In this document: one piece after another, positions 2,856 to 22,896 of the stretch | Position numbering within the stretch: the stretch's first letter is position 1 | How the letters are laid out: every line of letters begins with the position of its first letter | Virus record (IMG/VR): IMGVR_UViG_3300006752_000023 | Source of the DNA: an uncultured virus (IMG/VR IMGVR_UViG_3300006752_000023) | Lineage: Duplodnaviria > Heunggongvirae > Uroviricota > Caudoviricetes | Reading direction: 5' to 3' (one strand) | Length of the DNA stretch: 64,000 nt | The notes under the pieces: model-generated | Told to the model about the DNA's origin: nothing | What the model saw: the letters and a program-made list of their open reading frames with translations, nothing else | Databases searched by the model: none | Position numbers and translations under genes: made by a program

Positions 2856-2856
2856 G

Positions 2857-3588: not shown

Positions 3589-3589
3589 G

Positions 3590-3826: not shown

Positions 3827-3863
3827 GTATAACATCTAGATATTTACTTGTCTATATGAACAA

Positions 3864-4235
3864 TCAGAAGTTGTACTTGACGCCCAACTTAGCTCCATAT
3901 CCACGGTCAAGATCTTCGTCACCAGAACCGATGAACGATACTTCACCATATGCACCGAGGTTGTCGGTGACAGCGAGTCCAAGACCAGCTTTACCTGAGG
4001 GAACCGTATCGCTCTCGCCACTGTCAGGGGAGACTACACTAGCGCCGCCTTGAACATAGTACGAAGCGGACTCACCGAGTGCGCCTTCATATCCTACATG
4101 AAGATCTGTCGTGGTCGAATTGTAGTCGGATCCAGTCCAACCAGAATTAGCCTCGACATTGACATAGGGTCCTGCAAAGACAGCGCCAGCAGAAGCAAAC
4201 AGAGCAGCGGTGGCTGCGAATACAGATTTAAACAT
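3864..4235 (-). CDS. Small outer-membrane beta-barrel-like protein with signal peptide
   Basis: Signal peptide ending AVFA, alternating amphipathic strands, C-terminal GVKYNF (BAM-type terminal Phe). Confidence 0.75.
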   Translation of the reverse strand: MFKSVFAATAALFASAGAVFAGPYVNVEANSGWTGSDYNSTTTDLHVGYEGALGESASYYVQGGASVVSPDSGESDTVPSGKAGLGLAVTDNLGAYGEVSFIGSGDEDLDRGYGAKLGVKYNF

Positions 4236-4337
4236 TTGAAAATTCCTTTAAGTATATCTCGTGGAGTATCCCACGGATGATAGAGAGATCGACATTCTCT
4301 CGCTTTAGATACGAACTGTCACATGTGACAGTTGTAA

Positions 4338-4345
4338 TATTTATA
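4338..4345 (-). promoter_or_regulatory. T4-type late promoter TATAAATA
   Basis: Exact match upstream of the structured leader of 3864-4235. Confidence 0.8.
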
Positions 4346-4349
4346 CATG

Positions 4350-5138: not shown

Positions 5139-6078
5139 GCTTGGCAATCACTTTCTGTACATTAGGAAGATAATGCTTCTGTAAGACTGATGTCCAGTCA
5201 AACTCTTTTGCATACTCTAGAATTTCTTCACGATGGGATACCGAGTACTCCCGATTCTTAATTATAGCATACTCTACGAATTCTACATCATCAATCTTAG
5301 ATTCTGGGATGACTGTGATGAATTCCCTATCAGTATCAAGGTTTGCTTGAGCGAACTCGCTTACTACTACACCAAGACCAGAAGCAAAGGCTTCCATAAT
5401 GACGAGAGAGTGTGCCTCACCGTCAGATAGAAGGACAAGGTTGCCATAATCAGTTAGATAATCATGAAGATACTCCTTCTTCCATTCACCAAGATAGTTC
5501 TTGTTAGGATTAAATTTCTTATCTGCAATATTACCAGCAAAGAACAAACTATCAATAGACTGAAACTTATGCTGACGCTTACGATAATCAACCTTAGCAA
5601 GGTAGATACTACGATCAGGAAACTCTGGAGTATCAGTAGTACGGAACAACTCTAAGTTGACACCATTAGGTACGATGTATAATTTATCCTTAGGGATATC
5701 CCCAAGGATATGATATGCTTTCTGAATACCTTCAGAGAGACAGAATACATTTGGTCGGGTCTTCTGAAACTGACCAAAGATCTGCCCATACCCATTCATC
5801 TTATGGGACTGCTCAAGGTAGGCGAAGTGAGTTGTACATGCACAAGGGTACTGCACATAAGGATAGAGAACAACCCAGTCATCATAATGAATATGTACGA
5901 AGTCAGGACGAAATTCATTGATCCTTTTGATGATCTCTCTAGGACTTGAGATATTAATGATGTCAACTTCATGTCCCAGTTTATTTAAGGTAAGTTTATA
6001 GTCCCAGATTAAACTTTCTACTGCACCCCAACCTACTGGAGGGATAGCAGTAGCTGGTCCAATAATAGAAAATCTCAT
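5125..6078 (-). CDS. GT-B glycosyltransferase (GT4-like)
   Basis: IPPVGWGAVE, VPNGV, EAHSLVIMEAFASGLGVV (Ex7E motif). Confidence 0.85.
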   Translation of the reverse strand: MRFSIIGPATAIPPVGWGAVESLIWDYKLTLNKLGHEVDIINISSPREIIKRINEFRPDFVHIHYDDWVVLYPYVQYPCACTTHFAYLEQSHKMNGYGQIFGQFQKTRPNVFCLSEGIQKAYHILGDIPKDKLYIVPNGVNLELFRTTDTPEFPDRSIYLAKVDYRKRQHKFQSIDSLFFAGNIADKKFNPNKNYLGEWKKEYLHDYLTDYGNLVLLSDGEAHSLVIMEAFASGLGVVVSEFAQANLDTDREFITVIPESKIDDVEFVEYAIIKNREYSVSHREEILEYAKEFDWTSVLQKHYLPNVQKVIAKHGQK

Positions 6079-7037
6079 AATAACGATTGCAACTTCGGAA
6101 TGTATTCATAAGCAAGAATGTTTTCAAGACCGAACTGGTTAATGCCGTATTCTCTGATCTCTTTTCTATGCTGCTTCGATACTTTTTTATTATTCTCAAT
6201 CACATTGAGAATGTAATCGATATTATTTATTTTACTTTCTGGGATGACATCAATCCAAGGTTTTGATGTATCAAGTTCAGGAGTAATAGCTTCTGAACAC
6301 ACAACTCCTAGTCCACAAATAAGTCCTTCCTTAATTACAAGAGGGGTTGTATTTTCAACCTCACTTAGAAGAGCAATATTTGAGTAGCAAGTAATGAAGT
6401 CGTTGAGTTTTTCTCTAACAACTTCTCCTTTATAGTTTTTATTTTTACCATCAAACTTACCACCAAACTCCATGCGACCCATGAAATCAACAGTATCTAT
6501 ACCTTCTAGAAGATACTGACGCTTACGATCTACAATTTGAGAGAAGCACAATGTTCTATCCCAACTAGCAAACTCATCGAACTTATATGGATAAGGACGA
6601 ACACCAAGTTTACTCAACCAAACACGGTTGGGATTAGCTCCAAGTTCTGTCCAAGTATCCATATCTTTCTGCGAAGAGCAGAAGATATGAAAGTTTCTAT
6701 TGGCAGCATAACTCTCAGCCACAGGTCCATAACCATCTCTACCCCACATGTGAGGAGTATTGACATATGGATAGTGACTAGAGACAATCAATGCCTTACA
6801 CAAAGGAACTAAGTCTTTAATAATGTCATGGAAGACATCGTAATGTAGGTGAACTACATCATACTTACCATGCTCTACTTCAAATTTAATTAGTTCTCTA
6901 TCTGGAGTGTTGATAATCTCAACACGATGTCCAAGTTCTCTAAGAATTACAGTGTAATCCCAGATCAACATTTCAACAGCACCCCAACCATCGGGTGGGA
7001 TTTCCATAATACCAGGACCAACTAAAGCGATCTTCAT
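6075..7037 (-). CDS. GT-B glycosyltransferase (GT4-like), paralog of neighbour
   Basis: IPPDGWGAVEMLIWDY, PLVIKEGLICGLGVV; shares motifs with 5125-6078. Confidence 0.82.
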   Translation of the reverse strand: MKIALVGPGIMEIPPDGWGAVEMLIWDYTVILRELGHRVEIINTPDRELIKFEVEHGKYDVVHLHYDVFHDIIKDLVPLCKALIVSSHYPYVNTPHMWGRDGYGPVAESYAANRNFHIFCSSQKDMDTWTELGANPNRVWLSKLGVRPYPYKFDEFASWDRTLCFSQIVDRKRQYLLEGIDTVDFMGRMEFGGKFDGKNKNYKGEVVREKLNDFITCYSNIALLSEVENTTPLVIKEGLICGLGVVCSEAITPELDTSKPWIDVIPESKINNIDYILNVIENNKKVSKQHRKEIREYGINQFGLENILAYEYIPKLQSLL

Positions 7038-7873
7038 TGGTAATCCTCCCAATACATAGTTTTTTTAATTTGATCAATGAACCCAGGACTATGAAACTTC
7101 AGTGAATCTACATTCTCACATGCACTATGGAATGCAAAGATCTTTTTATACTCATCTTCCTGTGGATTCTTTCCACAAAAAATACCGTCTTCCAATTTCA
7201 AGTCTTGCTGATCAGCTGCAGCACAATGATTAAAAGATCCATTGGTAAACTTATATCCACCAACTTCATTTAAAGTAAGACAAAGAATCAGTTCATCAGT
7301 CACCCCATTATGAGTACCAGATTTACCAAAGATGTCCTCAAAGATTTCATTGTATCTTACAAACAATTTATCATGCTTGTCTTTCTGAAACAAGAAAGCA
7401 CCTGAAGCTCCATAAACATATTCAGAATGATCATCAGGTAGATAATTTGCCATTCCGGTTCTATCTACAATTACATTTCTAAAGTAATCTTCAAGAGTAG
7501 GAACCCACCAATGACGGGTGAGTAAGAAATCATCTTCTGCTTCTTCGATTAGTTCATCAACACGGTCATTGACAATAACACAATCAGTGTCAAGGTAAAT
7601 GCAATGATCTGTTTCTACATGCTTATAAAGATTGTACCGCTCCTTCCAGATGTGTGGTTGGAACCAGTTGCGATCATCTTCATTCTCTACTTTCTCAGCC
7701 TTACCACTAACAATTTTTACTTTAGGATCGTCAATCTCCAGACGATCTTCCATGTCAATGATAAGAATTTCATGATCTTGTTTAATACGCTCAAGAGACT
7801 CACATGCTCTCATGAGATTGGTGTAATACTTATCGTCACCACCAACGATAAAACCAAAGGTTAATTTACTCAT
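7034..7873 (-). CDS. Putative GT-A fold glycosyltransferase (GT8-like)
   Basis: CIYLDTDC DxD motif, SGAFLF, TDE motif; lies in the glycan island. Confidence 0.65.
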   Translation of the reverse strand: MSKLTFGFIVGGDDKYYTNLMRACESLERIKQDHEILIIDMEDRLEIDDPKVKIVSGKAEKVENEDDRNWFQPHIWKERYNLYKHVETDHCIYLDTDCVIVNDRVDELIEEAEDDFLLTRHWWVPTLEDYFRNVIVDRTGMANYLPDDHSEYVYGASGAFLFQKDKHDKLFVRYNEIFEDIFGKSGTHNGVTDELILCLTLNEVGGYKFTNGSFNHCAAADQQDLKLEDGIFCGKNPQEDEYKKIFAFHSACENVDSLKFHSPGFIDQIKKTMYWEDYQ

Positions 7874-8802
7874 AGCAATTTAAGGAGTCCGTTTATACGA
7901 TTGACATATGTATGATGCTCTTTAGTGTAATTCATCTGCCTGAGAATAAGTTCTTTGTCGTCCTTATACTTCAGACCAGTCTCAAAAAGATCACCAATGC
8001 TTTCCCTACAGATAACTTCAGGTCCAGCAAAGGCAGCAAGTTTGGGAGAATTAGTAAGACCAAGATGACCATAACTCATAGACTTAAAAACTCTACAGGT
8101 TTTAGTACCCCATCTTTTATGAGTATCATTCCTGAGATCTGGATTCATAAAAGACTTCTGCATGAGATCTCTCATAACAGATCCATCTAAAGGATTAGTC
8201 CATGGATTAGACCATGCAGTCTTGACTCCTATTTTAGCACACAATGTTCCAAACTCTTGGATTAAGTGAGCATTCTTAAAGCGTCCTTCATGAGAGATAC
8301 TTCCAATGAAATAGAAGACATCATCTCTTGGAATGTTTATCCACTCTTCATCAAATTCTTCAGGCATAAGATCAGTTGCCCATGCAATATAGGCAATCTC
8401 ATATCCCTTATCTCTAGATGACAAACGATCAACACATACACCTGTGTCTAGCTCTTCAAAATCATTCAGGTCATGGTGAAACTCATAGTTATCCTTGTCC
8501 ATACTATCTTGATGATAGCGCATGTCAATTAGTTTCTTACAATTACCAAGATACTTTTCTGGATTAACACAGACATGCACATAATATACACAACTTGCTA
8601 GAACTGGAATGTTCTTGTCAGCATATCCTTCGGTAAAAAATACGCAATCTTCATAATCAAAGTCTGAGTGATCAGGATATTCATCATCATGAAACCAATG
8701 AACTTGATGTCCCGATCTTTCTAGGGCTTTTTTAAATCCCTCATGAACATAAGAATATGTGTCAGAGTGTAAGGGATACCCCCATAGTACACACTTCATC
8801 AT
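7870..8802 (-). CDS. Putative glycosyltransferase (CgeB/Glyco_trans_1_2-like)
   Basis: YFIGS, CRVFK, C-terminal EHHTYVNRI motif; island context. Confidence 0.65.
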   Translation of the reverse strand: MMKCVLWGYPLHSDTYSYVHEGFKKALERSGHQVHWFHDDEYPDHSDFDYEDCVFFTEGYADKNIPVLASCVYYVHVCVNPEKYLGNCKKLIDMRYHQDSMDKDNYEFHHDLNDFEELDTGVCVDRLSSRDKGYEIAYIAWATDLMPEEFDEEWINIPRDDVFYFIGSISHEGRFKNAHLIQEFGTLCAKIGVKTAWSNPWTNPLDGSVMRDLMQKSFMNPDLRNDTHKRWGTKTCRVFKSMSYGHLGLTNSPKLAAFAGPEVICRESIGDLFETGLKYKDDKELILRQMNYTKEHHTYVNRINGLLKLL

Positions 8803-9500
8803 ACCCTCCCGAGCATATAGTCTTCTGCTTTCTTAGTTTCACCAGTGACACATGTCATAGCATCAATAGTATGTGAAGGAACAAGATCGGGATGAGCCCA
8901 CCAGTCTTCAAAAGGATGATCGTTATCAACAGAGATATTGTCTGCAATCAATGTATAGCCATATGCCTGAAGATACTCACGAGAAGCATCTCTAACATCA
9001 GTACCGTCATTATACGCATCATGCTCAAATGTAATTGTAGCGAACTTATACTTCTCTAGGTTAATTTTTTTGAGTGCTTCAAAGGTAACTGATGCAGGTT
9101 CACAATCTACCTGAAGATAATCAAAGTTAGGACCAATGCCCAGCTCTTCAAAGAGTTGATCAAAATCTGCAGTAGTAGCATCACCTACAGCAATCTTTGC
9201 ACGGCGATGTTGATTGTATAGTTCTGCTTCATGCTCCTTGATTTCAAATCCAATACCATCCCATGCAAAACGAGACTCAAGAAGAGCAGTGTTGTTAGAG
9301 ATTACTGGATGTCCTGCTCCAATTTCTACAAAGGTTCCCTTAGGCATTCCATCAAGCATGCACAGGACAAACATATCCTGATAACACTGAGAGAAGTTCT
9401 GGTGACTCACCAGTTCAAGTCCATTGAATTTGTAGCGCAGTTCATTTCCTTTATCTACAGTGAAAAAGGTTGGCATTTGCCATGCATTTGGGTCACTCAT
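8799..9500 (-). CDS. FkbM-like SAM-dependent methyltransferase
   Basis: SQCYQD, FVEIGAG, SNNT, DYLQVDCE, ITFEHD, EDWW motifs. Confidence 0.82.
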   Translation of the reverse strand: MSDPNAWQMPTFFTVDKGNELRYKFNGLELVSHQNFSQCYQDMFVLCMLDGMPKGTFVEIGAGHPVISNNTALLESRFAWDGIGFEIKEHEAELYNQHRRAKIAVGDATTADFDQLFEELGIGPNFDYLQVDCEPASVTFEALKKINLEKYKFATITFEHDAYNDGTDVRDASREYLQAYGYTLIADNISVDNDHPFEDWWAHPDLVPSHTIDAMTCVTGETKKAEDYMLGRV

Positions 9501-10195
9501 GTTTGATAAGATGAATTATCTTTGGCTAGGTGTACAATTTTTCTTTGATAGGGATAGTCAGGATAGCATTCTGGGAATGCATAGTCTGGTGAGGCAGCAA
9601 ACACCCTATCGTTATGTTCAATAAAGAATCTATTGAGATGACTTTCATCATGCCATAGAGCAATTATATCATTACTATAATCTTTGTCAACTCTATCTCT
9701 CAAGAGTTTCATCATAGGAATGACTGCTTCCATTTTACCTCCCCATAGGCATCCTTGATAGTATTGAAGGGGTTGTCCTTTTATATAAGCCTCAGATTTA
9801 GGATTAGTTTCAAAGGTTCCTGTACCAGTCATGTAATGACATGGATGATGGACAGCAACAAAGTCCCTATCATCATCAAGAAGTTCTTCAGAGTAAACTA
9901 CTGACTCAACTCTCATGTCAGCATCTAGGAAAAGTAACCAATCATGCTGCTTTAAAAGTTCTTCTGCCTGTAGGATCGTATGAAAGCGTTCCAATGTAAT
10001 TGCAGGCCATTCCTTATGACTGATTTGAACATGAGTAATGTTCTCAGGTATTTCTCCCCCAAGTTCTCCATCGGTAAAGACATAATATTGTTTTTTTAAA
10101 TCAGGAAACAGGAGTTCTTCACAACTCTCATAATATTTTGGAAGAAAATCCAAATACTTATTTGTTCCGATGAAGATAATTGCTGCACTGATCAT
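9497..10195 (-). CDS. Glycosyltransferase family 6 (ABO-type alpha-1,3-Gal/GalNAc transferase)
   Basis: IGTNKY, YYVFTD, FLDAD, YYQGCLWGG, WHDESHLN hallmark motifs. Confidence 0.93.
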   Translation of the reverse strand: MISAAIIFIGTNKYLDFLPKYYESCEELLFPDLKKQYYVFTDGELGGEIPENITHVQISHKEWPAITLERFHTILQAEELLKQHDWLLFLDADMRVESVVYSEELLDDDRDFVAVHHPCHYMTGTGTFETNPKSEAYIKGQPLQYYQGCLWGGKMEAVIPMMKLLRDRVDKDYSNDIIALWHDESHLNRFFIEHNDRVFAASPDYAFPECYPDYPYQRKIVHLAKDNSSYQT

Positions 10196-11001
10196 AGAAT
10201 TTGCCATCCCTCACAATATAAATCTTTGGTATTATTAGTTTGATCCAAAGGAGGTCCAAACCATTTTGATGGAGCGACAACTTTCTTGTGTTCGTTAGTA
10301 GAAAGCCATGCTCCCCACCAACTAAAAGAACTATTAGCAATAATAAAATCACTGCAGAGAGTCATCATACAAAGATCAAGGTACTGATCATTTGTTTCAG
10401 AAACTAGGAATCTATCATTATTAAAAGTCGATTCCTGTAAACACCATTCTGGATCGTCTGAGAATATAATTACTTCCCGGTCAGAATCAAATAGTGTTAA
10501 CGCTTCCTTATAGTAATTTATATCACAAATAGGATGGTGATCATAATGATTGTAATCTGTACGACGGATGTGCAGAGCAATAGGATTTGTCACATCCTTA
10601 ATCATCCTCTTACAAGGTTCTAGATATTCGTCAGTAAATGTAAAATCTTTTAAGAGATCATCTCTAACATTATTAAAATATTTTTCTGATTGAAAAAATC
10701 CCAGCAAGCTCACAAAGTCTGGACAATTATTAAAAAGGTTTTCATCAAAGTGATAAAACTCCTCTCTAACAACAGGACGAGAAGAATCAATGTATTGAAC
10801 TTGAAGAGGGTTCAAAGAATTTAAATTAAAAGGAACAAACAACTGGTGCTCATTCCACTCATCCGCATTACTTTTGAAATTTGATGGGGGAACACAATAA
10901 TTAAACCCCCGATTAGCAGCAATACCTTTTACTGCAGCATACTGAAACATTTGATTGGCAAGACGCTCTTTCATCTTACCAACATAATTAATACCAATCA
11001 T
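10192..11001 (-). CDS. Glycosyltransferase family 11 (alpha-1,2-fucosyltransferase-like)
   Basis: RLANQMFQYA, GFFQSEKYF, HIRRTDY, FSDD, IIANSSFSWWGAWL. Confidence 0.92.
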   Translation of the reverse strand: MIGINYVGKMKERLANQMFQYAAVKGIAANRGFNYCVPPSNFKSNADEWNEHQLFVPFNLNSLNPLQVQYIDSSRPVVREEFYHFDENLFNNCPDFVSLLGFFQSEKYFNNVRDDLLKDFTFTDEYLEPCKRMIKDVTNPIALHIRRTDYNHYDHHPICDINYYKEALTLFDSDREVIIFSDDPEWCLQESTFNNDRFLVSETNDQYLDLCMMTLCSDFIIANSSFSWWGAWLSTNEHKKVVAPSKWFGPPLDQTNNTKDLYCEGWQIL

Positions 11002-11936
11002 CTTGTTTGCAAATCAGTTTGTGCAATATACCAGTCGTAAGTTTTACGAAGACCTTGTAGTAATTTATGGTTCGGCTTCCAACCTTTTTCCAGGAGTTTT
11101 GTATAGTCTAGAGGACGCTTGGGTGTACCATCTGGTTTAGAAGTATCCCATGCAATCTCTCCAGGATATCCAGTTACCTTTGCCATCATCTGTGCTAGTT
11201 CTTTGATAGAAACATCCTCGCCTGATCCTACATTGAGCAACTCTGCACAACTGTAGTTCTCCATAGCAAACATACATGCATCGGCAAGATCATCTACATG
11301 GAGAAACTCTCTACGAGGGGTGCCTGTACCCCAGCAGGTGACCGGTTTATCACCCTGCTGCCAGTTATTAAACTTCTGCATCATCGCGGGGATCACATGC
11401 CCGTTCAGAGGGTGGAAGTTATCGTTAGGACCATACAGGTTAGCAGGCATGAGACTAACACTCTTAAATCCATACTGTTTATAGTAGGACTTGAGCATAT
11501 AGATACCATGAATCTTGGCAAGAGCATATGCATCATTAGTAGGCTCAAGTTCTCCAGACATCAGAGACTCTTCTTGTACAGGAGTCTCGGCAAACTTAGG
11601 ATAGATGCATACACTTCCCAAAAACAAAAACTTTTTAACGCCACTTTTCCAGGCATTGTGAATTAAATTGTTTTGAATCTGAGTGTTCTGATAGATAAAC
11701 TCTGCTGAATAAGTATCGTTAGCGTGAATGCCACCGACACGAGCAGCAGCATCAAATACATAATCAATTTGTTCATAGTCAAAGAAACTTTCTACAGATT
11801 CTTGATCCATAAGATCAAGTTCTTGCCTAGTCCTGGTAATAACTTTAGTGTACCCTTCTTCTTTGAGACGACGAACAATAGCAGACCCAACTAGACCACG
11901 GTGTCCAGCAACAAAAATTTTTGAATCTTTATTCAT
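10998..11936 (-). CDS. fcl: GDP-L-fucose synthase (GDP-4-keto-6-deoxymannose epimerase/reductase)
   Basis: AGHRGLVGSA, AARVGGI, GSVCIYP, YALAK, NLYGPNDNF, HVIPA, REFLHVDD. Confidence 0.95.
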   Translation of the reverse strand: MNKDSKIFVAGHRGLVGSAIVRRLKEEGYTKVITRTRQELDLMDQESVESFFDYEQIDYVFDAAARVGGIHANDTYSAEFIYQNTQIQNNLIHNAWKSGVKKFLFLGSVCIYPKFAETPVQEESLMSGELEPTNDAYALAKIHGIYMLKSYYKQYGFKSVSLMPANLYGPNDNFHPLNGHVIPAMMQKFNNWQQGDKPVTCWGTGTPRREFLHVDDLADACMFAMENYSCAELLNVGSGEDVSIKELAQMMAKVTGYPGEIAWDTSKPDGTPKRPLDYTKLLEKGWKPNHKLLQGLRKTYDWYIAQTDLQTR

Positions 11937-11947
11937 TGTCCTAATCT

Positions 11948-13198
11948 TCACGGTGCAATTACAACTTCAGGTTCTGGTAGAGGGAATAAGAAACGCTTAC
12001 CTTTAAACTTAGGGTTCTTAAGGAAGAACTCTCTGAAGTGCCAAGGAAGAACAATGTGTAGATCATATTCATTCATCATGATATCTTCCTCATCTTTGAT
12101 AGGAATCCATGTACCAGGAGTAAATGATCCATCCTTATCGGGATTAACATCACCAATAGCCTCTACATCGTCAGGACCAATCTCCCATGTTTGAAGAGTC
12201 ACATTACCTTTAGTGCTAGCACCTAAGCAACAAATCTTTGCACCATTTGATTTGTAGAAGTCCATGATCTTCCAGAACTGGTCTTTGCAATCGTTAATAC
12301 GCTCTGCAAAAGCATCCCAAGGTTCTGTCGTATCCAACTTCTCCTCAATTTCCCTAGCAATAACGCCAGTGAGTTTAGTAGTACATTCTTTACGCAGTGA
12401 ATTGATAGTAGGAGTAACCACGATAGAGATGCTTCCACCATTAACAGCATTGAATTCAAAATCAACGATCTTAAATCCTGCTTTATCCATGATGTACTTG
12501 ATCTGCCGCATACCATAGTAGGACAAGTGCTCATGACACACAGTGTCAAAAGAATTTTGCCTCAACATCTCAGGCATGTAGCTCTGCTCAAGCACCCAGA
12601 TACCTTCAGCATCGAGAACTTCATGGACCTGGCGAGCAAACTCACAAGGATCCTCTAGGTCATAGAACATAGAGAACGATGTAACTACCTTAGCTTTCTG
12701 CTTACCAAAGCGATTACGATAGGTATCAGAAGAGAAAAAGTCTGCGATATAATTTACATGCTCAGGAATATAATCCTTGAACTTCTTAGAAGTAGGATCA
12801 ATAGACATGAGCTGTAGATCTGGAGGAAAGAATCCAAGGAAGGTTCCATCATTACCAGCAATATCTACAACGATATCACCAGACTCTAGATTAGTATCTC
12901 CCTTGATCTTCTCTGCCTTCTCACGCAAGTGACGAATCATAGAACCATTCAAACCAGAACGGTATCCATATTCATCACCATACATGGTAGGAAGATCAAA
13001 GGTATGCTCTAGTTGAACATGCCCACAACCACCTTTCCTCTCATCACATTTGACAAGAGCTAAAGGACCCCTGTACATTCCGAAGTCAATGGTTTTTGGA
13101 AAAATACCAGAGAGATACTGATCACCAAGATCAAGCACTGTGATTAGATGTTCGTTACCACAAACTCTACACTTTTCAATTTTGTAAAACTTATTCAT
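11948..13198 (-). CDS. NDP-hexose C-methyltransferase (Zn-binding N-terminus)
   Basis: [47 protein letters not shown]: TylC3/NovU-type C-MT motifs. Confidence 0.88.
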
Positions 13199-14187
13199 TG
13201 TCCGTAAATACACATGTCTTGTACAAGGTCAGAAAAACTATGTTCTGGTTCCCATCCTAGAACAGTTCTAGCCTTAGTATAATCCCCCAGAAGTTGTTCC
13301 ACTTCTGTCGGGCGGTAATATTTAGGGTTGACACGGATGATGTTTCTGCCCATGTTTTTGCAGTAACCAACCTCGTCTAAACCCTCTCCACGCCATTCAA
13401 TATTGAATCCATAATACTGCGAAGCCTCTTCAATAAACTGTCTGACACTACGCATCTCACCTGTAGCAAGTACGAAGTCATCAGGAGTTTCATGTTGAGA
13501 AATCATCCACATACCACGAACAAAATCCTTAGCATGTCCCCAGTCACGCTGTGCATCCAAGTTACCAAGTTCCAGGACATCCTGTAGTCCACTAGAAATC
13601 TTCGATAGTCCTATAGTAATCTTGCGAGTAACAAAGGTTTCTCCTCTCCTAGGAGACTCATGATTGAATAGGATGCCATTACTAGCATGAATACCATACG
13701 CTTCACGATAGTTTCTGACCATCCAATAAGAGTATAGTTTAGCCACGCCATAAGGAGAGCGGGGATAAAAAGGAGTTGTCTCACTCTGAGGAACTTCCTG
13801 AACAAGTCCATACAGTTCGCTAGTAGATGCCTGATAGAACTTGCAGGGATGATCTAACAGACGAATAGCCTCCAGAAGACGCAAGGTCCCTAGAGCATCA
13901 ACCTGTCCAACATATTCAGGCATCTCAAAGGATACCTTTACATGACTCATGGCACCAAGGTTGTATACCTCGGTTGGTTTAATCTTCTGAATGAGACTGA
14001 TGAGGTTACCTGCATCAGTTAGGTCTCCATAATGGAGATGAATCTTATCGTAGATGTGATCGATACGATGAGTATTAATAAGAGAAGAACGGCGTACAAT
14101 GCCATGAACTTCATATCCTTTTTCAAGGAGAAATTCTGCAAGGTACGAACCGTCCTGTCCTGTAATACCAGTTATTAATGCTATCAT
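13195..14187 (-). CDS. gmd: GDP-mannose 4,6-dehydratase
   Basis: [58 protein letters not shown]. Confidence 0.98.
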
Positions 14188-15501: not shown

Positions 15502-15746
15502 CGTACTTCAAAATTTAGTTTACGAACTTTTCGTTTGCGTCGGTTCTCTTGGTATTCTAAGTCATTTCTAGTGAGAGTATGACTATTCTTAGAATTGTTT
15601 TCAGTTTTTAACAAAACAACTTCGTTAAGATCCATAGCTGTAACTTTGTCACCCAATAATGTCATCATATTTGGGCAACCGCAACTCTGACTCTTGGTTG
15701 AGCTGGTCAATTCTACATTGCAAATTTTGCATCTGACAGATAGCAT
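15498..15746 (-). CDS. Small Zn-ribbon-like protein
   Basis: CKIC..CGC motif, basic C-terminus RRKRKVRKLNFEVR. Confidence 0.72.
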   Translation of the reverse strand: MLSVRCKICNVELTSSTKSQSCGCPNMMTLLGDKVTAMDLNEVVLLKTENNSKNSHTLTRNDLEYQENRRKRKVRKLNFEVR

Positions 15747-15797
15747 GTTTCAATAACTCCTTTATTTCAGATAATTCTTCTTTGATTTTTTGCTTTT

Positions 15798-16454
15798 TCA
15801 CAGAAAGATAACCTCAGTAAATCTGGTAGTGGTTTTAAAAAAATTGTCAACAATTGTCTGTCCATGGAACCATTTTCCAGGAAATACGACTCCGCAATTA
15901 AATCTATCTAAGATACATAACTCTTCTCTAAATTGATCAGATGTTTTCCAAGGATTGTTATGCTCGGTGTCCTTCTTTAAATAAAAAGTTTTTGCTTTTG
16001 TATTAAGAGGAGTATATAATGAAGTGCCAGACTTCATATGGTGATCTGGATTTAGAAAAATAATAAAATTTAATTGACCATCACAATGAGGATGCCAATG
16101 ATAACCCTCTCCAGGTATGTCTTTTAACAATCTAAATTGATTGACAACATGAAATAAATTTTGCAAATCTACTTCAACATTGTAGCTGTTTGCTACACCT
16201 TTGAGCAAGTATTCTCTATGTAAGTCCCATCTACTATCGAATAGTATTTGACCATCCATAAAGTCAGTACCATTTAGAGAATTTTTAACAGATTTGTTAG
16301 TTCTAATACCCTGAATGGAATTTAAATAATCATAAACTCTTTCTGGTCTCTTGTATATATTATCTATAAAGAGTATTTCAGAATCTTTCCAAGGGGTTTT
16401 AGTAATAGCCCATGATTCATTATACTCAAAGTCTTTATTATTAAAAAATTTCAT
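15798..16454 (-). CDS. 2OG-Fe(II) oxygenase-like protein (DUF6445-type)
   Basis: IDNIYKRP, PHCD, SGTSLY, RFNCGVVFPGKWFH, R-x-T. Confidence 0.75.
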   Translation of the reverse strand: MKFFNNKDFEYNESWAITKTPWKDSEILFIDNIYKRPERVYDYLNSIQGIRTNKSVKNSLNGTDFMDGQILFDSRWDLHREYLLKGVANSYNVEVDLQNLFHVVNQFRLLKDIPGEGYHWHPHCDGQLNFIIFLNPDHHMKSGTSLYTPLNTKAKTFYLKKDTEHNNPWKTSDQFREELCILDRFNCGVVFPGKWFHGQTIVDNFFKTTTRFTEVIFL

Positions 16455-16525
16455 GGGAGATACAAGGATCGAACTTGTGACAATCTCGGTGTAAACGAGG
16501 TGCTCTACCGCTGAGCTAATCTCCC
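16454..16525 (-). tRNA. tRNA-Val(TAC)
   Basis: GGGAGATTAGCTCAGCGGTAGAGCACCTCGTT-TAC-ACCGAGATTGTCACAAGTTCGATCCTTGTATCTCCCA cloverleaf; no encoded CCA. Confidence 0.95.
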
Positions 16526-16528
16526 AAG

Positions 16529-16601
16529 CGACTCAGGTTGGGGTCGAACCAACGACCGACTGCTTAGAAGGCAGTTGCTCTATCCACTGAGCTACTGAGT
16601 C
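16529..16601 (-). tRNA. tRNA-Arg(TCT)
   Basis: GACTCAGTAGCTCAGTGGATAGAGCAACTGCCT-TCT-AAGCAGTCGGTCGTTGGTTCGACCCCAACCTGAGTCG. Confidence 0.95.
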
Positions 16602-17197
16602 TTGAACATAAAAGTATAATTAACTCGCCTATTATCTAGGCCGGGTTTCATCGAAACTTTATTTGTTTCATGAAAATATTTGGAGTTGAATATGAGAAGA
16701 CGATTACACGCATAAGGAATAATCGTCTTCTCTGATTTAGTGTACTCCAGATATTTCCGAATCAACTTGACATCGGTATTATACTCACGCCATGTCCATG
16801 TCGGAGGCGGTTTAATATCATAAAGAATCAAACCGTTTTTCTCTGGATCTTCTACAGAAGAGTCTGGAGTGACCCAGAGATTCACATTATAACATGCTGG
16901 ATCAGCATGTGGAGTCACACCTTCGGCATTGTTGTTGTAAACGAATGCCCATCCTCTGGAAAATTTACCAAGGAATGGAAACTTCGCTTGCAACCCTGTT
17001 ATTATAACACCTAATAAAGGAAAGCGCAAGTTGTCTTGATAGAAGTTTAGTGAGTGATAGTCTTCGTAGGTATCATCTGGATCAGAGGCTGTTAAAGCAT
17101 AGTCTCTTAACTCATCAATTACATCTTGTAGAAATATTCCGTCCTCAACTAAAAATCTTTCTTCTTCAATTATCTTCTTTGCAATATTTGAGTGCAT
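16592..17197 (-). CDS. 2OG-Fe(II) oxygenase-like protein
   Basis: HADPA..NVNLW, NRLLIFNSKYFHET, RRVNYT. Confidence 0.8.
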   Translation of the reverse strand: MHSNIAKKIIEEERFLVEDGIFLQDVIDELRDYALTASDPDDTYEDYHSLNFYQDNLRFPLLGVIITGLQAKFPFLGKFSRGWAFVYNNNAEGVTPHADPACYNVNLWVTPDSSVEDPEKNGLILYDIKPPPTWTWREYNTDVKLIRKYLEYTKSEKTIIPYACNRLLIFNSKYFHETNKVSMKPGLDNRRVNYTFMFKTQ

Positions 17198-17687
17198 AAG
17201 TAAACCTATGATCAGATAATAATGGAGTTGCTCTATGCAAAATAGAAGAAGTAAACTTTACCAGAGTATTTGGAATGGGAGGAATACCAATAATTTTTTC
17301 ATCTAAGTAAAATTCAGTACACCCTCCCTCATTCAATCCAGTATACCTAGGATTAGCATAGAAAAGAAAAGTTACTTGATCTTCATCGAGGTCACAATCA
17401 ACATGAAAGTTTGCTGCTTCTCTAGGAGCAAAACAATTGATGTATGCTCGGTATAATTTATACTCTTTTACTTCTGGGAACCTTGCATAAATTAGAGATT
17501 CAAGAATACCAACGATCGTATCATCATCGTCATCTTCTGGGTCCAACTCACAGATCATTCCTGTTGGTTTAGAATCAGAATCATCTTGTTCACCATAAGT
17601 ATACTGACAATCAAAAGCATACTCACTCACCTCCCGAAAATCATCTGGAGTTAGAGCTTTATTAATACTAAGAATACTAGGTTTCAT
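17166..17687 (-). CDS. 2OG-Fe(II) oxygenase (prolyl-hydroxylase-like)
   Basis: RAYINC, FHVD, GGCTEF, HRATP, RFTYA. Confidence 0.85.
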   Translation of the reverse strand: MKPSILSINKALTPDDFREVSEYAFDCQYTYGEQDDSDSKPTGMICELDPEDDDDDTIVGILESLIYARFPEVKEYKLYRAYINCFAPREAANFHVDCDLDEDQVTFLFYANPRYTGLNEGGCTEFYLDEKIIGIPPIPNTLVKFTSSILHRATPLLSDHRFTYALKYCKEDN

Positions 17688-18250
17688 AATACATCGTCAA
17701 GTTTTTGTACTCGCCATACAACAGTGTATCTATACACATAAGGATGCCGTGGTCCAAGACCTCTATGAGGAATTTCAGATGGGAAAACTAATACTCTACC
17801 AGGAACATATTCGTGTTCTTCAATAACATCACCATCATCACCAAACAATTGAAACTGACCTCCCCATTCTTTAGTATCCCATTCCAAGTTCGGCATATAC
17901 ATGATAGTATACTCTCCCTCTTCACCGTCTATATGTGACGAGCCATCACAGAAAGAATGCTGCAAATTAAAATCAATTCTATTAAGATATAATTTTGTTT
18001 CTAGTGCTTCTTCTACTAGATCTAACATTTCAAAGTAAATCTCACAGTCGTTCATGAGATTTACTACTTTGTTTATACTCTCTCGTTCAAATATATTCTC
18101 TCCCATTAATCTATGGGTTCCATTTTCCCCATTAGGAAAAGACTTACCGTTCGCAATATTAATAGCAGTCACTGGTAAGTGGTGGAGGTTTTTTTCCACC
18201 TTGGCCATGTATTCTATACTAAAAAGTTTATCAAAGATTGTTGCTATCAT
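17684..18250 (-). CDS. 2OG-Fe(II) oxygenase (prolyl-hydroxylase-like)
   Basis: HID, EWGGQF, PGRVLVFPSEIPHRG, RYT. Confidence 0.85.
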   Translation of the reverse strand: MIATIFDKLFSIEYMAKVEKNLHHLPVTAINIANGKSFPNGENGTHRLMGENIFERESINKVVNLMNDCEIYFEMLDLVEEALETKLYLNRIDFNLQHSFCDGSSHIDGEEGEYTIMYMPNLEWDTKEWGGQFQLFGDDGDVIEEHEYVPGRVLVFPSEIPHRGLGPRHPYVYRYTVVWRVQKLDDVL

Positions 18251-18386
18251 TTAAATTTCTATTATAAATGACGACTCTACCATTTTCATGAGTAAAAATT
18301 AATTCATCGTCAGGATGCCACATCAACTCTTCGTAAAGAGCATTAAGTTTTTCCATATCCTCATAGAGTTGATTCGGATTCGGCAT
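18231..18386 (-). CDS. Small hypothetical protein
   Basis: ORF track 18231-18416; likely start MPNPNQ at 18386. Confidence 0.65.
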   Translation of the reverse strand: MPNPNQLYEDMEKLNALYEELMWHPDDELIFTHENGRVVIYNRNLNDSNNL

Positions 18387-18594
18387 CTTCACCCTCCTTT
18401 GTTTTATTAAATCCAAATGGACCTGCTGCTTTTTCTTCTAGTGCTACCTTCAGCGCAACACTACCAACAGCTTCCATACATTTGAGAATGTCTTCTGTCT
18501 TAGCACCTTCACCAAGTTCTTTGGCAATGTACCAATACTTAGGCCAGAAAGTTTCTCCTGCCAATTGATAATCTTCAAGTGTTAGTAGTTTCAT
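18361..18594 (-). CDS. Hypothetical protein
   Basis: MKLLTLEDY..FWPKY..GPFGF, coupled to the upstream stop. Confidence 0.7.
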   Translation of the reverse strand: MKLLTLEDYQLAGETFWPKYWYIAKELGEGAKTEDILKCMEAVGSVALKVALEEKAAGPFGFNKTKEGEDAESESTL

Positions 18595-18908
18595 TAGTCT
18601 CGTTGTCTCCAATCATCAGGTTTGTCAGTATGGAACCAGTCCTTAATATCATCAGCACTGTTGAACCCCGTTCTATGATTGGATGGATCGGGGTCTCCTA
18701 AACCCATCCTATTCAGAAAATCGTCGGTACTACCTTCTTCAATGTCTTGAGAAGATTGTCGTCGTGCTTTTTGCAACCAATCCCGAGCAGTAGTATGACT
18801 CTTTGCCAACTTCTCTGCCCAGATCATGTCGTCTAGTTTTACCTCTTCACCATTAGCAATACATTTACAGATAAATTCTAGTCTTAATCGATATTGTGTA
18901 GAAAGCAT
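18594..18908 (-). CDS. Conserved cyanophage hypothetical protein
   Basis: MLSTQYRLRLEFIC..GLGDPDPSNH..DDWRQRD; late-type CTAAATA at 18934-18928. Confidence 0.78.
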   Translation of the reverse strand: MLSTQYRLRLEFICKCIANGEEVKLDDMIWAEKLAKSHTTARDWLQKARRQSSQDIEEGSTDDFLNRMGLGDPDPSNHRTGFNSADDIKDWFHTDKPDDWRQRD

Positions 18909-18935
18909 TTGAAACCCCTAGCAAACTTATTTAGT

Positions 18936-19601
18936 CTATACTTGTACCCAGTGATGTGGTGATGTGACCACATTTTCGTAGTTGTGGTCTACATTTATAG
19001 TAGAGGTTACAAAGATATCATAGACGATTGAAGCTCTAAAGTCAACCCCACTAAACTCTGTTACCCTATGCAAAATATTAGATGGAAAAATAATTAGATC
19101 ACCATCTTCTGGATCTAAATTATAAAGACAATAATCATCAAGAACATTTAATGAAAGATTATCCATGTAACTTTCTGATGCAAGAGTCAATGTTCCACCG
19201 TCGCCCTCAGTTCTTAAGTAATAGACGCCACTAAAGTGGGATCCCTTATGCAAGTGATCTGGATTACCACCATCTTCTAATCTACACACATTAGGCCAGG
19301 ACTTTTGAAAGAAAATATCATGCACATAATCCTCACCACTATCAGTTTTTCTGCATATACCAGATAGATATTGCCTAGTAGCATGTGCCATCTGAGCATT
19401 CAACCAATAAAATTCTTTAGTTTTATGTAAAAGGAAAAACTTTGGAATGTCTTGATCACCAGTAAAGTTACCAGTATCTTCAATCTCTTCCAAGTTCTTA
19501 TAGTAAAACTCCTCACAAAGATTCATCATTCCTTCCCACTCTTTTTGTGGACAAGAAACATTTGATTTGTAAATTGCTGTTGGAAAAATATGTTTTATCA
19601 T
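18936..19601 (-). CDS. Putative 2OG-Fe(II) oxygenase (TIGR02466-like)
   Basis: IFPTAIY, SWPN, HLH, SGVYYL, GDLIIFPSNILHRV. Confidence 0.82.
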   Translation of the reverse strand: MIKHIFPTAIYKSNVSCPQKEWEGMMNLCEEFYYKNLEEIEDTGNFTGDQDIPKFFLLHKTKEFYWLNAQMAHATRQYLSGICRKTDSGEDYVHDIFFQKSWPNVCRLEDGGNPDHLHKGSHFSGVYYLRTEGDGGTLTLASESYMDNLSLNVLDDYCLYNLDPEDGDLIIFPSNILHRVTEFSGVDFRASIVYDIFVTSTINVDHNYENVVTSPHHWVQV

Positions 19602-19602
19602 A

Positions 19603-19674
19603 AGCCAGTTACAGGATTTGAACCAGTGACCTGATCTTTACAAAAGACCTGCTCTACCACTGAGCTAAACTGGC
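19603..19674 (-). tRNA. tRNA-Thr(TGT)
   Basis: GCCAGTTTAGCTCAGTGGTAGAGCAGGTCTTT-TGT-AAAGATCAGGTCACTGGTTCAAATCCTGTAACTGGCT; one T-stem mismatch. Confidence 0.92.
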
Positions 19675-20306
19675 AAGGTGATTGTGATTACTGGTTTGTA
19701 AAGCCAACCAGTTTTGCAATAATTACAGTTCTTAGGGACTTCAACCTCATAAGGTTTGAAACTCATATCAAACTGCGATTTAATATTCATGGTACTTAGC
19801 ATGGCATAGTACCTATCAATGTGACCTTGCATTAGTTCACCTTGACTAGAACAATAGAAAGAGAATTTTGCGATCTCTCTCGCGTGTTCATAGACACATG
19901 TTATTATAAAATAACAAGTCTCGCAACCAGCATACTGACGAGTCACCTCTGGTTTTTCTTCCATGTAAGGATCATAAAAGAAGCAGTCATACTTACCAAG
20001 ACCAGTAGTGTCTGGCCAAGCTTGGTTTAGAATGGTGATATTGGAGTAGTCTTTTGACCATTCCACTGCTCTATTATACACCACTGGGTCTGGCTCTAGA
20101 ACAGTATATGACTTAATATTATGTTTTTGAAATTGGGTGGCAGAGTATCCCATACCAAACCCAATCTCAAGAACATCTCCATATGGTTCTAGGGCATCAA
20201 CACAATCTTCCATGTACTTCTTTTCCCACTCCATCATATATTGATGATGATCAGAAGTACCATAAAGAATATCTTGATTGTTTATGTCTCTTGTGTATTC
20301 TGCCAT
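19665..20306 (-). CDS. SAM-dependent N-methyltransferase (GAMT/Rmt2-like)
   Basis: MMEWEKKYM, DVLEIGFGMGYSA, YDCFFYD; likely start 20306. Confidence 0.8.
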   Translation of the reverse strand: MAEYTRDINNQDILYGTSDHHQYMMEWEKKYMEDCVDALEPYGDVLEIGFGMGYSATQFQKHNIKSYTVLEPDPVVYNRAVEWSKDYSNITILNQAWPDTTGLGKYDCFFYDPYMEEKPEVTRQYAGCETCYFIITCVYEHAREIAKFSFYCSSQGELMQGHIDRYYAMLSTMNIKSQFDMSFKPYEVEVPKNCNYCKTGWLYKPVITITLPV

Positions 20307-20313
20307 AACTAAT

Positions 20314-20811
20314 TTAAACTGGCGTAAACCATATCTGTAGACTATATCTAAAGTCATCAGAGTACGGAGAAACTGTGGTTACCATATGATCCTCGTTCTC
20401 TGCATTAAGAACCATCATATTATATGTGGGGTTAAGTGCTCTCAACTCTTCTCCATCATTCCATATAAAGATACCTCCCCAATTGATATCCCACTCTTTG
20501 TTTAAGTATATAGTACACCCATACCGACCGTTATCGTCATGCATAGATATACCAGAATTTTTATGCCAAACATAAAGTTGTACCTCAGCGTCATCATATG
20601 GTAGAACATATGGATCTATACATCTTAACACAGAATGCCTAAGTTCTATAGGTAAGTTAGTCATGGTGACATTTCCTGTCACACCAACCTTTAACGAGTC
20701 ATTCCAAAATAACTCACTAACAGCCCAAACATTTTCTCCTAAAGAATCCTCAAGAAATTTTTCACAGTTAAGTAAAACTTCTTCAGTCAGCACCCCATAT
20801 TTTATAATCAT
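20314..20811 (-). CDS. 2OG-Fe(II) oxygenase (prolyl-4-hydroxylase-like)
   Basis: MHDD, TIYLNKEWDINWGG, HMVTTV, RYSLQIW; likely start 20811. Confidence 0.85.
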   Translation of the reverse strand: MIIKYGVLTEEVLLNCEKFLEDSLGENVWAVSELFWNDSLKVGVTGNVTMTNLPIELRHSVLRCIDPYVLPYDDAEVQLYVWHKNSGISMHDDNGRYGCTIYLNKEWDINWGGIFIWNDGEELRALNPTYNMMVLNAENEDHMVTTVSPYSDDFRYSLQIWFTPV

Positions 20812-21229
20812 AATAATCTTTTTTATAATAACGACCCAAGATATTACTGTTGTAATACTTGGGGTCACCGTTTTCAAGAGATTCTGTTAGGACAGAATGG
20901 ACAAATAATTGTTTGGTTTCTTCGTAGTTAACTTTACCCTTTGTTAATTGTAACGAAAGTATTTCTCGTCTGAAGGAACTATTTCCAAGTCCACGGCGGT
21001 CCTGATTAAGTTCGTCAGAACTTCCGTAGTATCTTTTCCAGTCGCTCTCACTTTTAACTCTCCTACCTCCACCTCTAGGCTTTCGTAGTTGGTAAAAGTA
21101 TTTCCTACCGATGTATTGTCTACCTGATTCAAGATTAGTAATCCGGTAGACAAAACCGACAAACTCACCAATGTTCTCAGATAAAAAAGGTTGTCCTTCA
21201 AAAATCCAGGGGTTTTCATAATCAACCAT
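20783..21229 (-). CDS. GIY-YIG endonuclease (Seg-like)
   Basis: GFVYRITN..RQYIGRK, YYGSS, REIL, YYN. Confidence 0.85.
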   Translation of the reverse strand: MVDYENPWIFEGQPFLSENIGEFVGFVYRITNLESGRQYIGRKYFYQLRKPRGGGRRVKSESDWKRYYGSSDELNQDRRGLGNSSFRREILSLQLTKGKVNYEETKQLFVHSVLTESLENGDPKYYNSNILGRYYKKDYYDYKIWGAD

Positions 21230-21264: not shown

Positions 21265-22896
21265 TCAGACTCCTTTAACTAACATAGCACCACGCTTTTC
21301 ACCAAACTTTTTCATTCTTTTTTGTCTGTCAGACAGTCCATCATTGGCGTAATCGCGGTATGTATTACCGTGACCATCAACAGCAGTTGCTTTTACACCA
21401 GCTTGTTCTGCGACAGATGAATCATTCATAAACTCATCAATGATCTCAACAATCTGAGCACCAGTGAGTTGCATCATAATCTCTTCTGCTTCCTCTACAC
21501 TCTCAATAAGGTTGTTCTCACTAAGAAAAGCAAGAATTACATCATAGTGGCTAACATCTTCAAAGTGAGGGTTTTTCTGACCCTTCACTTTTTCCATATC
21601 TTTACGAGCCTTCTCATTATTTTCCTGACGCTTCTTCATATTAGTCTCAAGATACTCAGGATGGTCATCCACCTTCATCCCACGCTTCTTCTCAAGGCGT
21701 TCCTTTCTCTCCTTAGTACCCTTTTCAGAATCCTTATCCCGGATACCTTCTAACAATCCACCTTCCTTTACACAGTTAGGAACTTCCTTACCGTTCTTTT
21801 TCTTAGTACCCTTTGCCGTGTAACCGTCCCAGCAAGTAGAAGCACCAACATTCTTACGAGCTTTCTTCAAACTTTCAAAGAAATTGCCCTTAGACTCAAT
21901 CTCTTCCTTCGTTACTTTCTTAGCCTTGTTAGCAGCAACAGCAGCACGATGTTGTGCAAGGGTTTTATAACGACCTACCTTTGTCTTATCATTGGCACCA
22001 GTGTAGGTACTAGCAGCAGACTTAGGACCTTGACCTTCTTTACTACCACCAGCAATAGCTGCTCTACTTGTAATAGGACCAGTAGGTTTTGGCTTTGGTT
22101 TAGGTGTTGGACTAGGTGTAGGTGATGGAGTTGGTGTTGGGGAAGGTGTAGGACTTGGTGTGGGTGATGGTGTTGGACTTGGAGTAGGAGTAGGAGTTTT
22201 ACCTGGATCTCCATAGACCTTACCTTTAGTCATTCCGATATGGTCAGGAACTGTAGGTTTAGTTTTTGTAGGAGGATCAATAGGAGCAGCACCCTTAGTT
22301 TTCAGTTCTGGTGGAACACCTTTACCACCTTTGTTACGATAGTCTTGTGCTCTCATAACTTCTGGAGAAACAGATCTACTACTCTGAGGGTTTCCTGAGA
22401 AGAAATTGCCTGCGTTTCTCTTCACATCACGAAGTTTCTGCATCAAATCAAATTCCACAATGATAGCTCTTGCCTGCCGCTTCTCTGCAGTGTCAAGATT
22501 CTCATTGATCCTAGGGTTAACTGCCTTTAATGCAGCACGAAACTCATACCCAACCACCTCAGGAGGAAATGCTTCTACAATATTATCAATAAGTCTAGAG
22601 TTCTCATATCCATCTTCGACCAGAATCTCTGCAATAGCAAAGTACTGTTCAGCAAATACAGGATTCATAGCCTGTAGTCTCTTCAGATAGAAGGACTCAC
22701 ATGTACACTTATCAGTTTTCTTCTTCTTACTGCCAGGAGAATACTTACCTAACATTAAACGCTTGTTAGTTTCATCTTCAGTTTCTGCCGTCTCACCCTT
22801 AGAGGCATCCATGCGAGCTGCACCTTTTGGGTCAATCGCTTCAGAAGCAATCTGAGCATAAGAGTCCGCAAGTTTTTTAAGATCAGAGGAAAGCAT
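21265..22896 (-). CDS. Large late K/E-rich mosaic protein with Pro-Thr/Pro-Ser repeat (putative internal virion protein)
   Basis: 543-aa ORF, (PTPS)n tract, CWDGY..GTKKKNGKEVPNCV module, late promoter upstream. Confidence 0.7.
   Translation of the reverse strand: MLSSDLKKLADSYAQIASEAIDPKGAARMDASKGETAETEDETNKRLMLGKYSPGSKKKKTDKCTCESFYLKRLQAMNPVFAEQYFAIAEILVEDGYENSRLIDNIVEAFPPEVVGYEFRAALKAVNPRINENLDTAEKRQARAIIVEFDLMQKLRDVKRNAGNFFSGNPQSSRSVSPEVMRAQDYRNKGGKGVPPELKTKGAAPIDPPTKTKPTVPDHIGMTKGKVYGDPGKTPTPTPSPTPSPTPSPTPSPTPTPSPTPSPTPKPKPKPTGPITSRAAIAGGSKEGQGPKSAASTYTGANDKTKVGRYKTLAQHRAAVAANKAKKVTKEEIESKGNFFESLKKARKNVGASTCWDGYTAKGTKKKNGKEVPNCVKEGGLLEGIRDKDSEKGTKERKERLEKKRGMKVDDHPEYLETNMKKRQENNEKARKDMEKVKGQKNPHFEDVSHYDVILAFLSENNLIESVEEAEEIMMQLTGAQIVEIIDEFMNDSSVAEQAGVKATAVDGHGNTYRDYANDGLSDRQKRMKKFGEKRGAMLVKGV
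22084..22198 (-). repeat. Coding tandem repeat encoding TPTPTPSPTPSPTPSPTPSPTPTPSPTPSPTPKPKPKP
   Basis: Degenerate 6/12-bp periodicity inside 21265-22896. Confidence 0.9.

Follow-up and report, generated by a model that had tools for sequence, protein, structure and literature searches.

The 64,000-nucleotide (nt) stretch of DNA analyzed here, referred to in full as the window, is from an uncultured virus (IMG/VR record IMGVR_UViG_3300006752_000023) and belongs to a T4-like cyanophage: its closest DNA matches are Synechococcus phages, and psbA, gp23, family B DNA polymerase and clamp-loader genes are present. On its minus strand, within a run of 2OG-Fe(II) oxygenase and methyltransferase-like genes flanked by a GIY-YIG gene and a glycosyltransferase island, two open reading frames (ORFs) end on nt 8-10 of a tRNA gene and two others begin at or just past a tRNA discriminator base. 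The features at these junctions are as follows (aa, amino acids; SAM, S-adenosylmethionine).

19665..20306, minus strand: SAM-dependent methyltransferase-like gene, 213 aa, whose stop is T8-A9-G10 of tRNA-Thr; weak PF00398 match (24.1 bits, cut-off 24)
19603..19674, minus strand: tRNA-Thr(UGU), without encoded CCA
18936..19601, minus strand: OG_B, a 2OG-Fe(II) oxygenase gene of the TIGR02466 family, with its ATG 1 nt past the tRNA-Thr discriminator
16592..17197, minus strand: 201-aa gene (phrog_1644-like) without a stop of its own; its stop is T8-A9-G10 of tRNA-Arg
16529..16601, minus strand: tRNA-Arg(UCU), without encoded CCA
16454..16525, minus strand: tRNA-Val(UAC), without encoded CCA; A73 doubles as the A of the next ATG
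15798..16454, minus strand: 218-aa gene (phrog_1644), which overlaps the 201-aa gene by GTGA in tRNA-free relatives

The tRNA-Arg gene extends from G1 at 16601 to its discriminator at 16529, and the TAG of its nt 8-10 (16594-16592) is the only stop of ORF 16592-17197, which ends in the residues F-K-T-Q. The TAG at nt 8-10 of tRNA-Thr (G1 at 19674, TAG at 19667-19665) is likewise the only stop of ORF 19665-20306, which ends in T-L-P-V. Both endings had been reported in a first-pass annotation made from the letters alone, and their coordinates were confirmed. The same annotation had placed the ATG of ORF 15798-16454 on the tRNA-Val discriminator and that of ORF 18936-19601 1 nt past tRNA-Thr, and both placements held. 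G1 of tRNA-Val is at 16525, and A73 at 16454 is the first base of the ATG (the ARAGORN call, 16453-16526, was 1 base too wide at either end); the tRNA-Thr discriminator, T 19603, is followed by one further T and the ATG at 19601. As in mitochondrial-type tRNA punctuation, the tRNA genes directly adjoin or overlap coding regions on the same strand, and an endonucleolytic cut at G1 would, on the sequence alone, take away the sole in-frame stop of either upstream gene.

That the true starts might lie further downstream, as the first-pass annotation had allowed, was not borne out. From residue 4 onward, OG_B aligns to TIGR02466 from profile position 2; residue 7 of the 218-aa protein aligns to position 3 of phrog_1644, and its next Met is only at residue 66. 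Judged by these family profiles, the annotated starts of ORFs 18936-19601 and 15798-16454 appear to be the true ones, with no room for later starts.

Frequency of stops and starts within tRNA genes

To place the window cases among relatives, 416 tRNA loci were gathered from viral contigs, of which 296 were classed as cyanophage-like by shared proteins. Two of the locus-collecting patterns contained tRNA nt 8-10; the remaining patterns did not. The 296 loci yielded 1164 tRNA calls. The upstream gene could be validated for 534 of these, either by a homolog at <70% identity or by a length of ≥120 aa, and 311 upstream genes were left once entries with the same protein cluster (80%), anticodon and stop position had been merged. 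A stop at tRNA nt 8-10 (denoted +10) was the commonest position (53/311), followed by -1 (25), and 95/311 upstream genes terminated somewhere within the tRNA, a few of them probably spurious ORFs. Among upstream genes of ≥120 aa, 23/133 ended at +10.

Because most tRNAs carry a stop at nt 8-10, the two window cases alone have about a 1 in 9 chance of arising. Across the survey, 69 ORFs extend beyond nt 7 of a stop-bearing tRNA; 53 of them used nt 8-10 (p = 2e-13 against 1/3), as did 14/17 when counted per protein family (p = 5e-5), which is the fairer count since rows are related. Where tRNAs lack a stop at nt 8-10 the same reading phase was again the commonest, in small numbers (6/11). The fused layout is spread over 15 protein families and eight anticodons, so it is not a matter of one gene with one function. 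The comparison proposed in the first-pass annotation, whether different genes in related phages end on a tRNA TAG more often than by chance, thus came out in its favor, and the overlap, which it had allowed might not be conserved, recurs in relatives with unrelated genes. The layout is real and widespread well beyond the window.

In cyanobacteria of the host family, 1/64 upstream genes ended at +10, from 134 first-in-cluster tRNAs (mainly the 30 best of 37-42 tRNAs in four genomes; Fisher test against phage, p = 3e-4). The single host case (L504) is a 457-aa ORF that stops on nt 8-10 of a tRNA-Gly. Other viral loci gave 4/39 at +10, two being cyanophage-type genes, and KVP40, Aeh1 and T5 gave 0/22, yet seven ORFs there stop elsewhere within tRNAs. 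The stop of T4 segB is at -6 relative to the tRNA.

The arrangement is also found in cultured phages. The cpeT gene overlaps the following tRNA by exactly 10 nt in S-CAM4 (Thr), Syn9 (Val) and S-RSM4 (Asp), stops at +6 in S-PM2 on a TGA within the acceptor stem, and is at +10 in 16/22 cpeT clusters of the survey. In a tree of 31 cpeT rows, which has several long branches and a root for drawing only, the midpoint root separates two groups that each contain +10 alleles, and alleles with their own stop fall within groups of fused alleles; in one case such an allele and a fused one are sisters joined by very short branches. Read from this tree, cpeT appears to have regained its own stop several times. 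Two further Syn9 genes enter tRNAs by other distances, gp203 (L415, 3485-3687) entering tRNA-Arg by 39 nt and gp25 (L636, 7818-8075) entering tRNA-Thr by 23 nt.

On the 3′ side, the first ATG past the last tRNA of a cluster was bimodally distributed (n = 304): 10 at the discriminator, 0 at +1, 11 at +2, 8 at +3, 12 in all at +6 to +13, and 93 at +16 to +22. Most close downstream starts were backed by homolog alignments. An ATG at A73 was rejected as the true start in at least 2 of the 10, where it is a chance extension and the real start is a later Met (L129, transaldolase-like, and L238). In hosts, 0/29 downstream ATGs were at 0-3. A stop within the tRNA and an ATG at ≤5 nt co-occurred (23/79 blocks versus 16/181, p = 1e-4).

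Gene overlaps in tRNA-free relatives and turnover of tRNAs

The 201-aa gene was found at 33 loci, one of them identical to the window and not independent. It stops at +10 in 12, +23 in 9 and +2 in 2; 8 loci are tRNA-free and 2 are cut off. In all 8 tRNA-free loci it overlaps the 218-aa gene by GTGA, its last sense codon closing on the G of the next start. The Arg-Val block of the window stands at that single purine position: G1 closes the codon and A73 opens the start. The methyltransferase-like gene and OG_B are joined by ATGA in 6 distinct junctions, including a lineage with GTGA at the Arg/Val site, and the fusion codon of the window methyltransferase aligns with the last native codon of these ATGA-joined relatives. 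The fusion codon is the last native codon in alignments of the methyltransferase, the 201-aa gene and cpeT alike. In two closer relatives (L662, L694), the 2OG-Fe(II) oxygenase gene OG_A is joined to OG_B by ATGA without a tRNA-Thr.

At these loci, genes are joined most often by the ATGA-type 4-base overlap (245/984). With a tRNA block in place, G1 is the third base of the last sense codon, nt 2-4 and 5-7 are read, T8-A9-G10 is the stop, and the downstream ATG is still 0-3 nt from the discriminator. A tRNA at a 4-nt stop-start junction is therefore automatically in phase to read nt 8-10 as stop. Alleles that are tRNA-free or have their own stop are known for every junction, and the layout is not obligatory for expression of the flanking genes. 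The first-pass annotation had offered a scar of insertion next to tRNAs under genome compaction as the alternative to tRNA punctuation; the ATGA and GTGA overlaps at both junctions in tRNA-free relatives make this the better supported of its two proposals. A counter-example to fusion was also seen: in L667, L668, L672 and L674, a tRNA-Gly lies between two oxygenase genes (ATGA-joined in the window), the upstream one of which terminates at -11 on a stop of its own.

The genes upstream of tRNA-Thr, and those between the two tRNA sites, are as follows.

20783..21229, minus strand: gene for a GIY-YIG (SegE-like) protein (PF19835, E = 1e-50), upstream of the variable interval in all haplotypes
20314..20811, minus strand: OG_A, 2OG-Fe(II) oxygenase gene (PF13640), 165 aa from the ATG at 20811
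20308..20323, minus strand: relic of tRNA-Thr nt 1-16 (13/16 match), which gives the last codons and stop of OG_A
17166..18250, minus strand: two more 2OG-Fe(II) oxygenase genes with an ATGA overlap between them, in the same operon-like run

Three gene orders were found before tRNA-Thr: methyltransferase-OG_A-Thr, with OG_A at +10; OG_A-relic-methyltransferase-Thr, as in the window; and a methyltransferase with its own stop 6 nt ahead of a different tRNA-Thr. OG_A ends directly on tRNA-Thr nt 8-10 in L202, L205, L206 and L698-L700, and a homolog at 62% identity is fused to tRNA-Thr in the same way. The relic matches tRNA-Thr nt 1-16 at 13/16 positions in the window and at 15/16 in L157, L200 and L201. 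Since OG_A of the window ends in this decayed copy, it must once have been fused to the tRNA. In L695 and L696, tRNA-Thr is gone save for a T-arm and acceptor relic 20 nt before OG_B, which supplies the methyltransferase stop; the alleles compared here indicate that tRNA-Thr was lost at least twice. Behind one and the same gene, tRNA identity has been exchanged in register (Arg/Val; Thr/Asp/Val), stop positions shift between +2, +6, +10 and +23, and genes regain their own stops. An initial idea that tRNAs were gained at both sites was not established, as two Thr-site alleles look like losses. Relics of tRNA 5′ or 3′ ends resembling attachment (att) sites were likewise dropped as a general rule, with one clean 5′ relic type in 836 tRNA contexts. 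In L378, OG_A runs into a promoter-like site of the tRNA.

Several neighboring features were recorded. The C-terminus of the GIY-YIG protein (20783-20811) is variable, its last residues and stop being supplied by the next gene or, in L414, by tRNA-Arg nt 8-10. Both the 218-aa and the 201-aa proteins match phrog_1644 (“minor coat protein”) and no Pfam family; both contain HxD...H-like motifs of the kind present in 2OG-Fe(II) oxygenases, and the phrog_1644 label may be wrong. A 50-aa ORF at 15649-15801 with a GTG start overlaps the stop of the 218-aa gene by GTGA; it is kept in relatives, in several of which it starts directly at the tRNA-Val discriminator. The ORF at 21265-22896 encodes a 543-aa protein with a Pro-Thr/Pro-Ser repeat and no Pfam match, whose length ranges from 543 to 953 aa among relatives. 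Positions 1-14187 hold a psbA fragment, tryptophan halogenase, redoxin and a long glycosyltransferase and sugar-nucleotide island, as is usual for such phages.

Transcription, RNA processing and competing explanations

Promoter scans covered sigma-70-like sites. Between 15000 and 21500 they gave no signal (31 sites versus 23.9 ± 4.2 in shuffled sequence; terminators, 2 versus 3.4). Neither the cpeT 3′ end (0/16) nor the window gene families had a promoter-like site at ≤95 nt from the tRNA. The first-pass annotation had considered that the tRNAs might be made from separate short transcripts; no promoter-like site precedes the window tRNAs, and co-transcription is therefore likely. Late-promoter-like TAAATA motifs are present at 21240 and 18934 (motif from PMC2984593). 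In one metatranscriptome, 5% of words were found, in contigs of relatives (57/95 <90% alike), with none bridging the junctions among the pieces shown and with no transcript start or end sites. Minimum free energy folds of the junctions gave no consistent alternative structure, and two of the tRNAs were misfolded. CCA is encoded in only 45/664 phage tRNA sequences.

The most probable explanation, in our judgment, is gain and loss of tRNAs in a compact cyanophage operon, at junctions where neighboring genes are translationally coupled. The tRNA genes would be mobile passengers that enter and drop out of such junctions, and the stop within the tRNA and the close ATG would both follow from one geometry, through recombination or deletion at gene ends, with a filter that keeps protein and acceptor stem intact and the extension short. 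Cyanophage tRNAs have been tied to non-syntenic regions (Sullivan 2010, PMC3037559). Gene and tRNA would share a transcript on which translation continues up to the moment of the host RNase P cut at G1. Cyanobacteria possess both RNase P and RNase Z (PMC10989914), and in E. coli the secG leuU transcript is quickly cut by RNase P, after which the upstream mRNA decays fast (PMC2241853). The cut would strip only tRNA-derived residues, one partial codon plus two, and would leave a non-stop mRNA with all complete native codons but the last. Rebuilding of stops by polyadenylation is not known from bacteria. Stalled ribosomes would then be cleared by ArfB, giving a near-native untagged protein, or by transfer-messenger RNA (tmRNA). 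ArfB frees non-stop ribosomes through peptidyl-tRNA hydrolysis (PMC4235212), and host-family genomes encode it (5/5) along with SmpB (5/5), so tmRNA tagging is not the sole possible outcome. The cost may be small and the layout tolerated, since nearly all native codons would be spared, with only tRNA-derived residues removed, and since the hosts have both ArfB and SmpB. For downstream genes, the uncut precursor would serve as the template for translation or, where the start is at +2/+3, RNase Z would yield a near-leaderless mRNA.

Some observations weigh against tRNA gain and loss. The +10 fusion of cpeT persists in 16/22 clusters, on both sides of the tree and with three tRNA identities, which is long for a neutral accident; streamlined low-GC hosts are also compact, yet 0/27 are at +10; and none of the 23 tRNA-bearing alleles of the 201-aa gene has become independent of the tRNA for its stop. 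The 3′ spacing at the Thr site (+2) is not expected from clean insertion into ATGA, so a later adjustment would be needed. At the Arg/Val site the tRNA block may have been either gained or lost, the tRNA-free lineage forming one of three clades in a tree whose root is not fixed.

Such persistence, in cpeT and in OG_A at 62% identity, is what selection for tRNA-punctuation control would give, with RNase P producing non-stop mRNA and tmRNA tagging, RNase Z destroying or exposing a start, and terminating ribosomes delaying tRNA folding, so that release of the tRNA would be tied on purpose to the output of protein. Enrichment over hosts (p = 3e-4), the lack of promoter-like sites in the cpeT 3′ end and window families, the RNase P cut and fast upstream decay of secG leuU (PMC2241853), and the programmed non-stop control of arfA (PMC4235212) are all consistent with it. 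We nevertheless regard selected control as unlikely. The stop position is not fixed (+2, +6, +10, +21/23, +38) and varies among close relatives of the 201-aa gene (+10 in 12, +23 in 9 and +2 in 2 of 23 tRNA-bearing alleles); cpeT alleles with a stop of their own fall within groups of fused alleles, in one case on very short branches; the fused genes have no function in common; and the geometry is accounted for without selection. Fused genes are slightly richer in cognate codons (2.15% versus 1.86%, permutation p = 0.022), but as a sign of attenuation this is weak, since rows are related, significance is lost in the last 30 codons (p = 0.086), and there are just 3 cognate codons per window gene.

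The layout would set synthesis of the protein against production of the tRNA. There may also be no real conflict of this kind, if tRNAs come mostly from short transcripts begun inside the upstream gene while long mRNAs are translated and degraded unprocessed. A -35 element is found near the tRNA in host tRNA genes (PMC11726456), and sigma-70-like promoters lie within conserved C-terminal codons of GC61-like genes (L059, L129, L249, L259 and others; 7/17 +10 cases) and of family 1010 (L184, L187, L217, L261; 4/5 +10 cases), which may be dual-coding DNA and a possible driver of the tRNAs. Over all +10 cases, however, such a site at ≤65 nt was as frequent as in control windows (8/52 versus 17/156) and far rarer than before well-spaced tRNAs (39/77), it was lacking in cpeT and the window families, and the full-length mRNA would always still include the tRNA; short transcripts are thus a rather improbable general explanation. 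Least credible to us is a site-specific system, either an integrase-like att site at the tRNA 5′ end or GIY-YIG homing, that inserts cassettes before tRNAs and duplicates the 5′ end. The copy of tRNA-Thr nt 1-16 that brackets the methyltransferase gene, the GIY-YIG gene as a fixed upstream neighbor, and T4 segB within the T4 tRNA cluster would fit it, but one clean 5′ relic type was found in 836 contexts (7 hits of ≥12/16, the other 6 chance-like), the insert is a single methyltransferase-like gene, and a Pfam scan found no integrase among 64 window proteins.

Implications and comparison with known systems

Searched titles and abstracts contained no description of phage genes ending on tRNA nt 8-10, most subscription papers lying outside that search, and the available text of PMC3152331, PMC2984593, PMC10976474 and PMC10194205 makes no mention of such overlaps. 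The layout is apparently undescribed, although it is already visible in the GenBank coordinates of the well-studied phages Syn9, S-RSM4, S-CAM4 and S-PM2. For annotation, the 10-nt overlap of coding sequence and tRNA is genuine in these genomes. Even if neutral in origin, the layout explains how tRNAs enter and leave compact phage operons without breaking their neighbors.

It is doubtful, though conceivable, that T4-like cyanophages use host tRNA processing as an expression timer, with ribosomes and RNase P competing for the same ten bases. If so, dense translation would delay the tRNA, and tRNA release would create a non-stop mRNA whose output is set by the host ArfB-to-tmRNA balance; RNase Z would silence downstream genes that start at A73 and turn those with +2/+3 starts over to leaderless translation. 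About 1/6 of genes before a tRNA, whose only stop lies where the acceptor and D stems of the tRNA meet, would be concerned, including the auxiliary cpeT of the model phage Syn9, and this would be tRNA punctuation in a bacterial virus. In a cultured phage-host pair, the competition of RNase P, terminating ribosomes and ribosome rescue for a single RNA could be tested directly, as could a possible link between the supply of phage tRNAs and the expression of auxiliary metabolic genes, cpeT among them.

In mitochondrial tRNA punctuation, as here, tRNAs adjoin or overlap their neighbors on a polycistronic strand and may share a discriminator A. An activity there completes the UAA stops of some mRNAs; of two overlapping tRNAs, E. 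coli released the complete upstream one and degraded the downstream one (PMC4284800). The phage arrangement differs in that the stop lies within the tRNA and the layout is optional and labile. E. coli secG leuU is alike in that RNase P parts the tRNA from the upstream mRNA, which then decays quickly; unlike the phage genes, secG has its own stop and a 14-nt spacer, hence no non-stop mRNA arises (PMC2241853). The arfA gene likewise makes its protein from a truncated mRNA, with a fate set by tmRNA or alternative rescue (PMC4235212; PMC10107115), but it is a dedicated and tested feedback loop, whereas the phage case involves unrelated genes and RNase P as the putative cutter. Among phages, the tRNA recombination hot spots of T4-like cyanophages are similar in that tRNAs mark variable, non-syntenic islands, and the available text of PMC3037559 mentions neither genes ending in tRNAs nor tRNAs in stop-start overlaps. 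The tRNA region of coliphage T5 also has ORFs, of 172-194 aa, that stop inside tRNAs (+14, +23, +24); T5, KVP40 and Aeh1 differ from the cyanophages in having no +10 among their 22 first-in-cluster tRNAs with an upstream ORF and in encoding CCA in nearly all of these 22.

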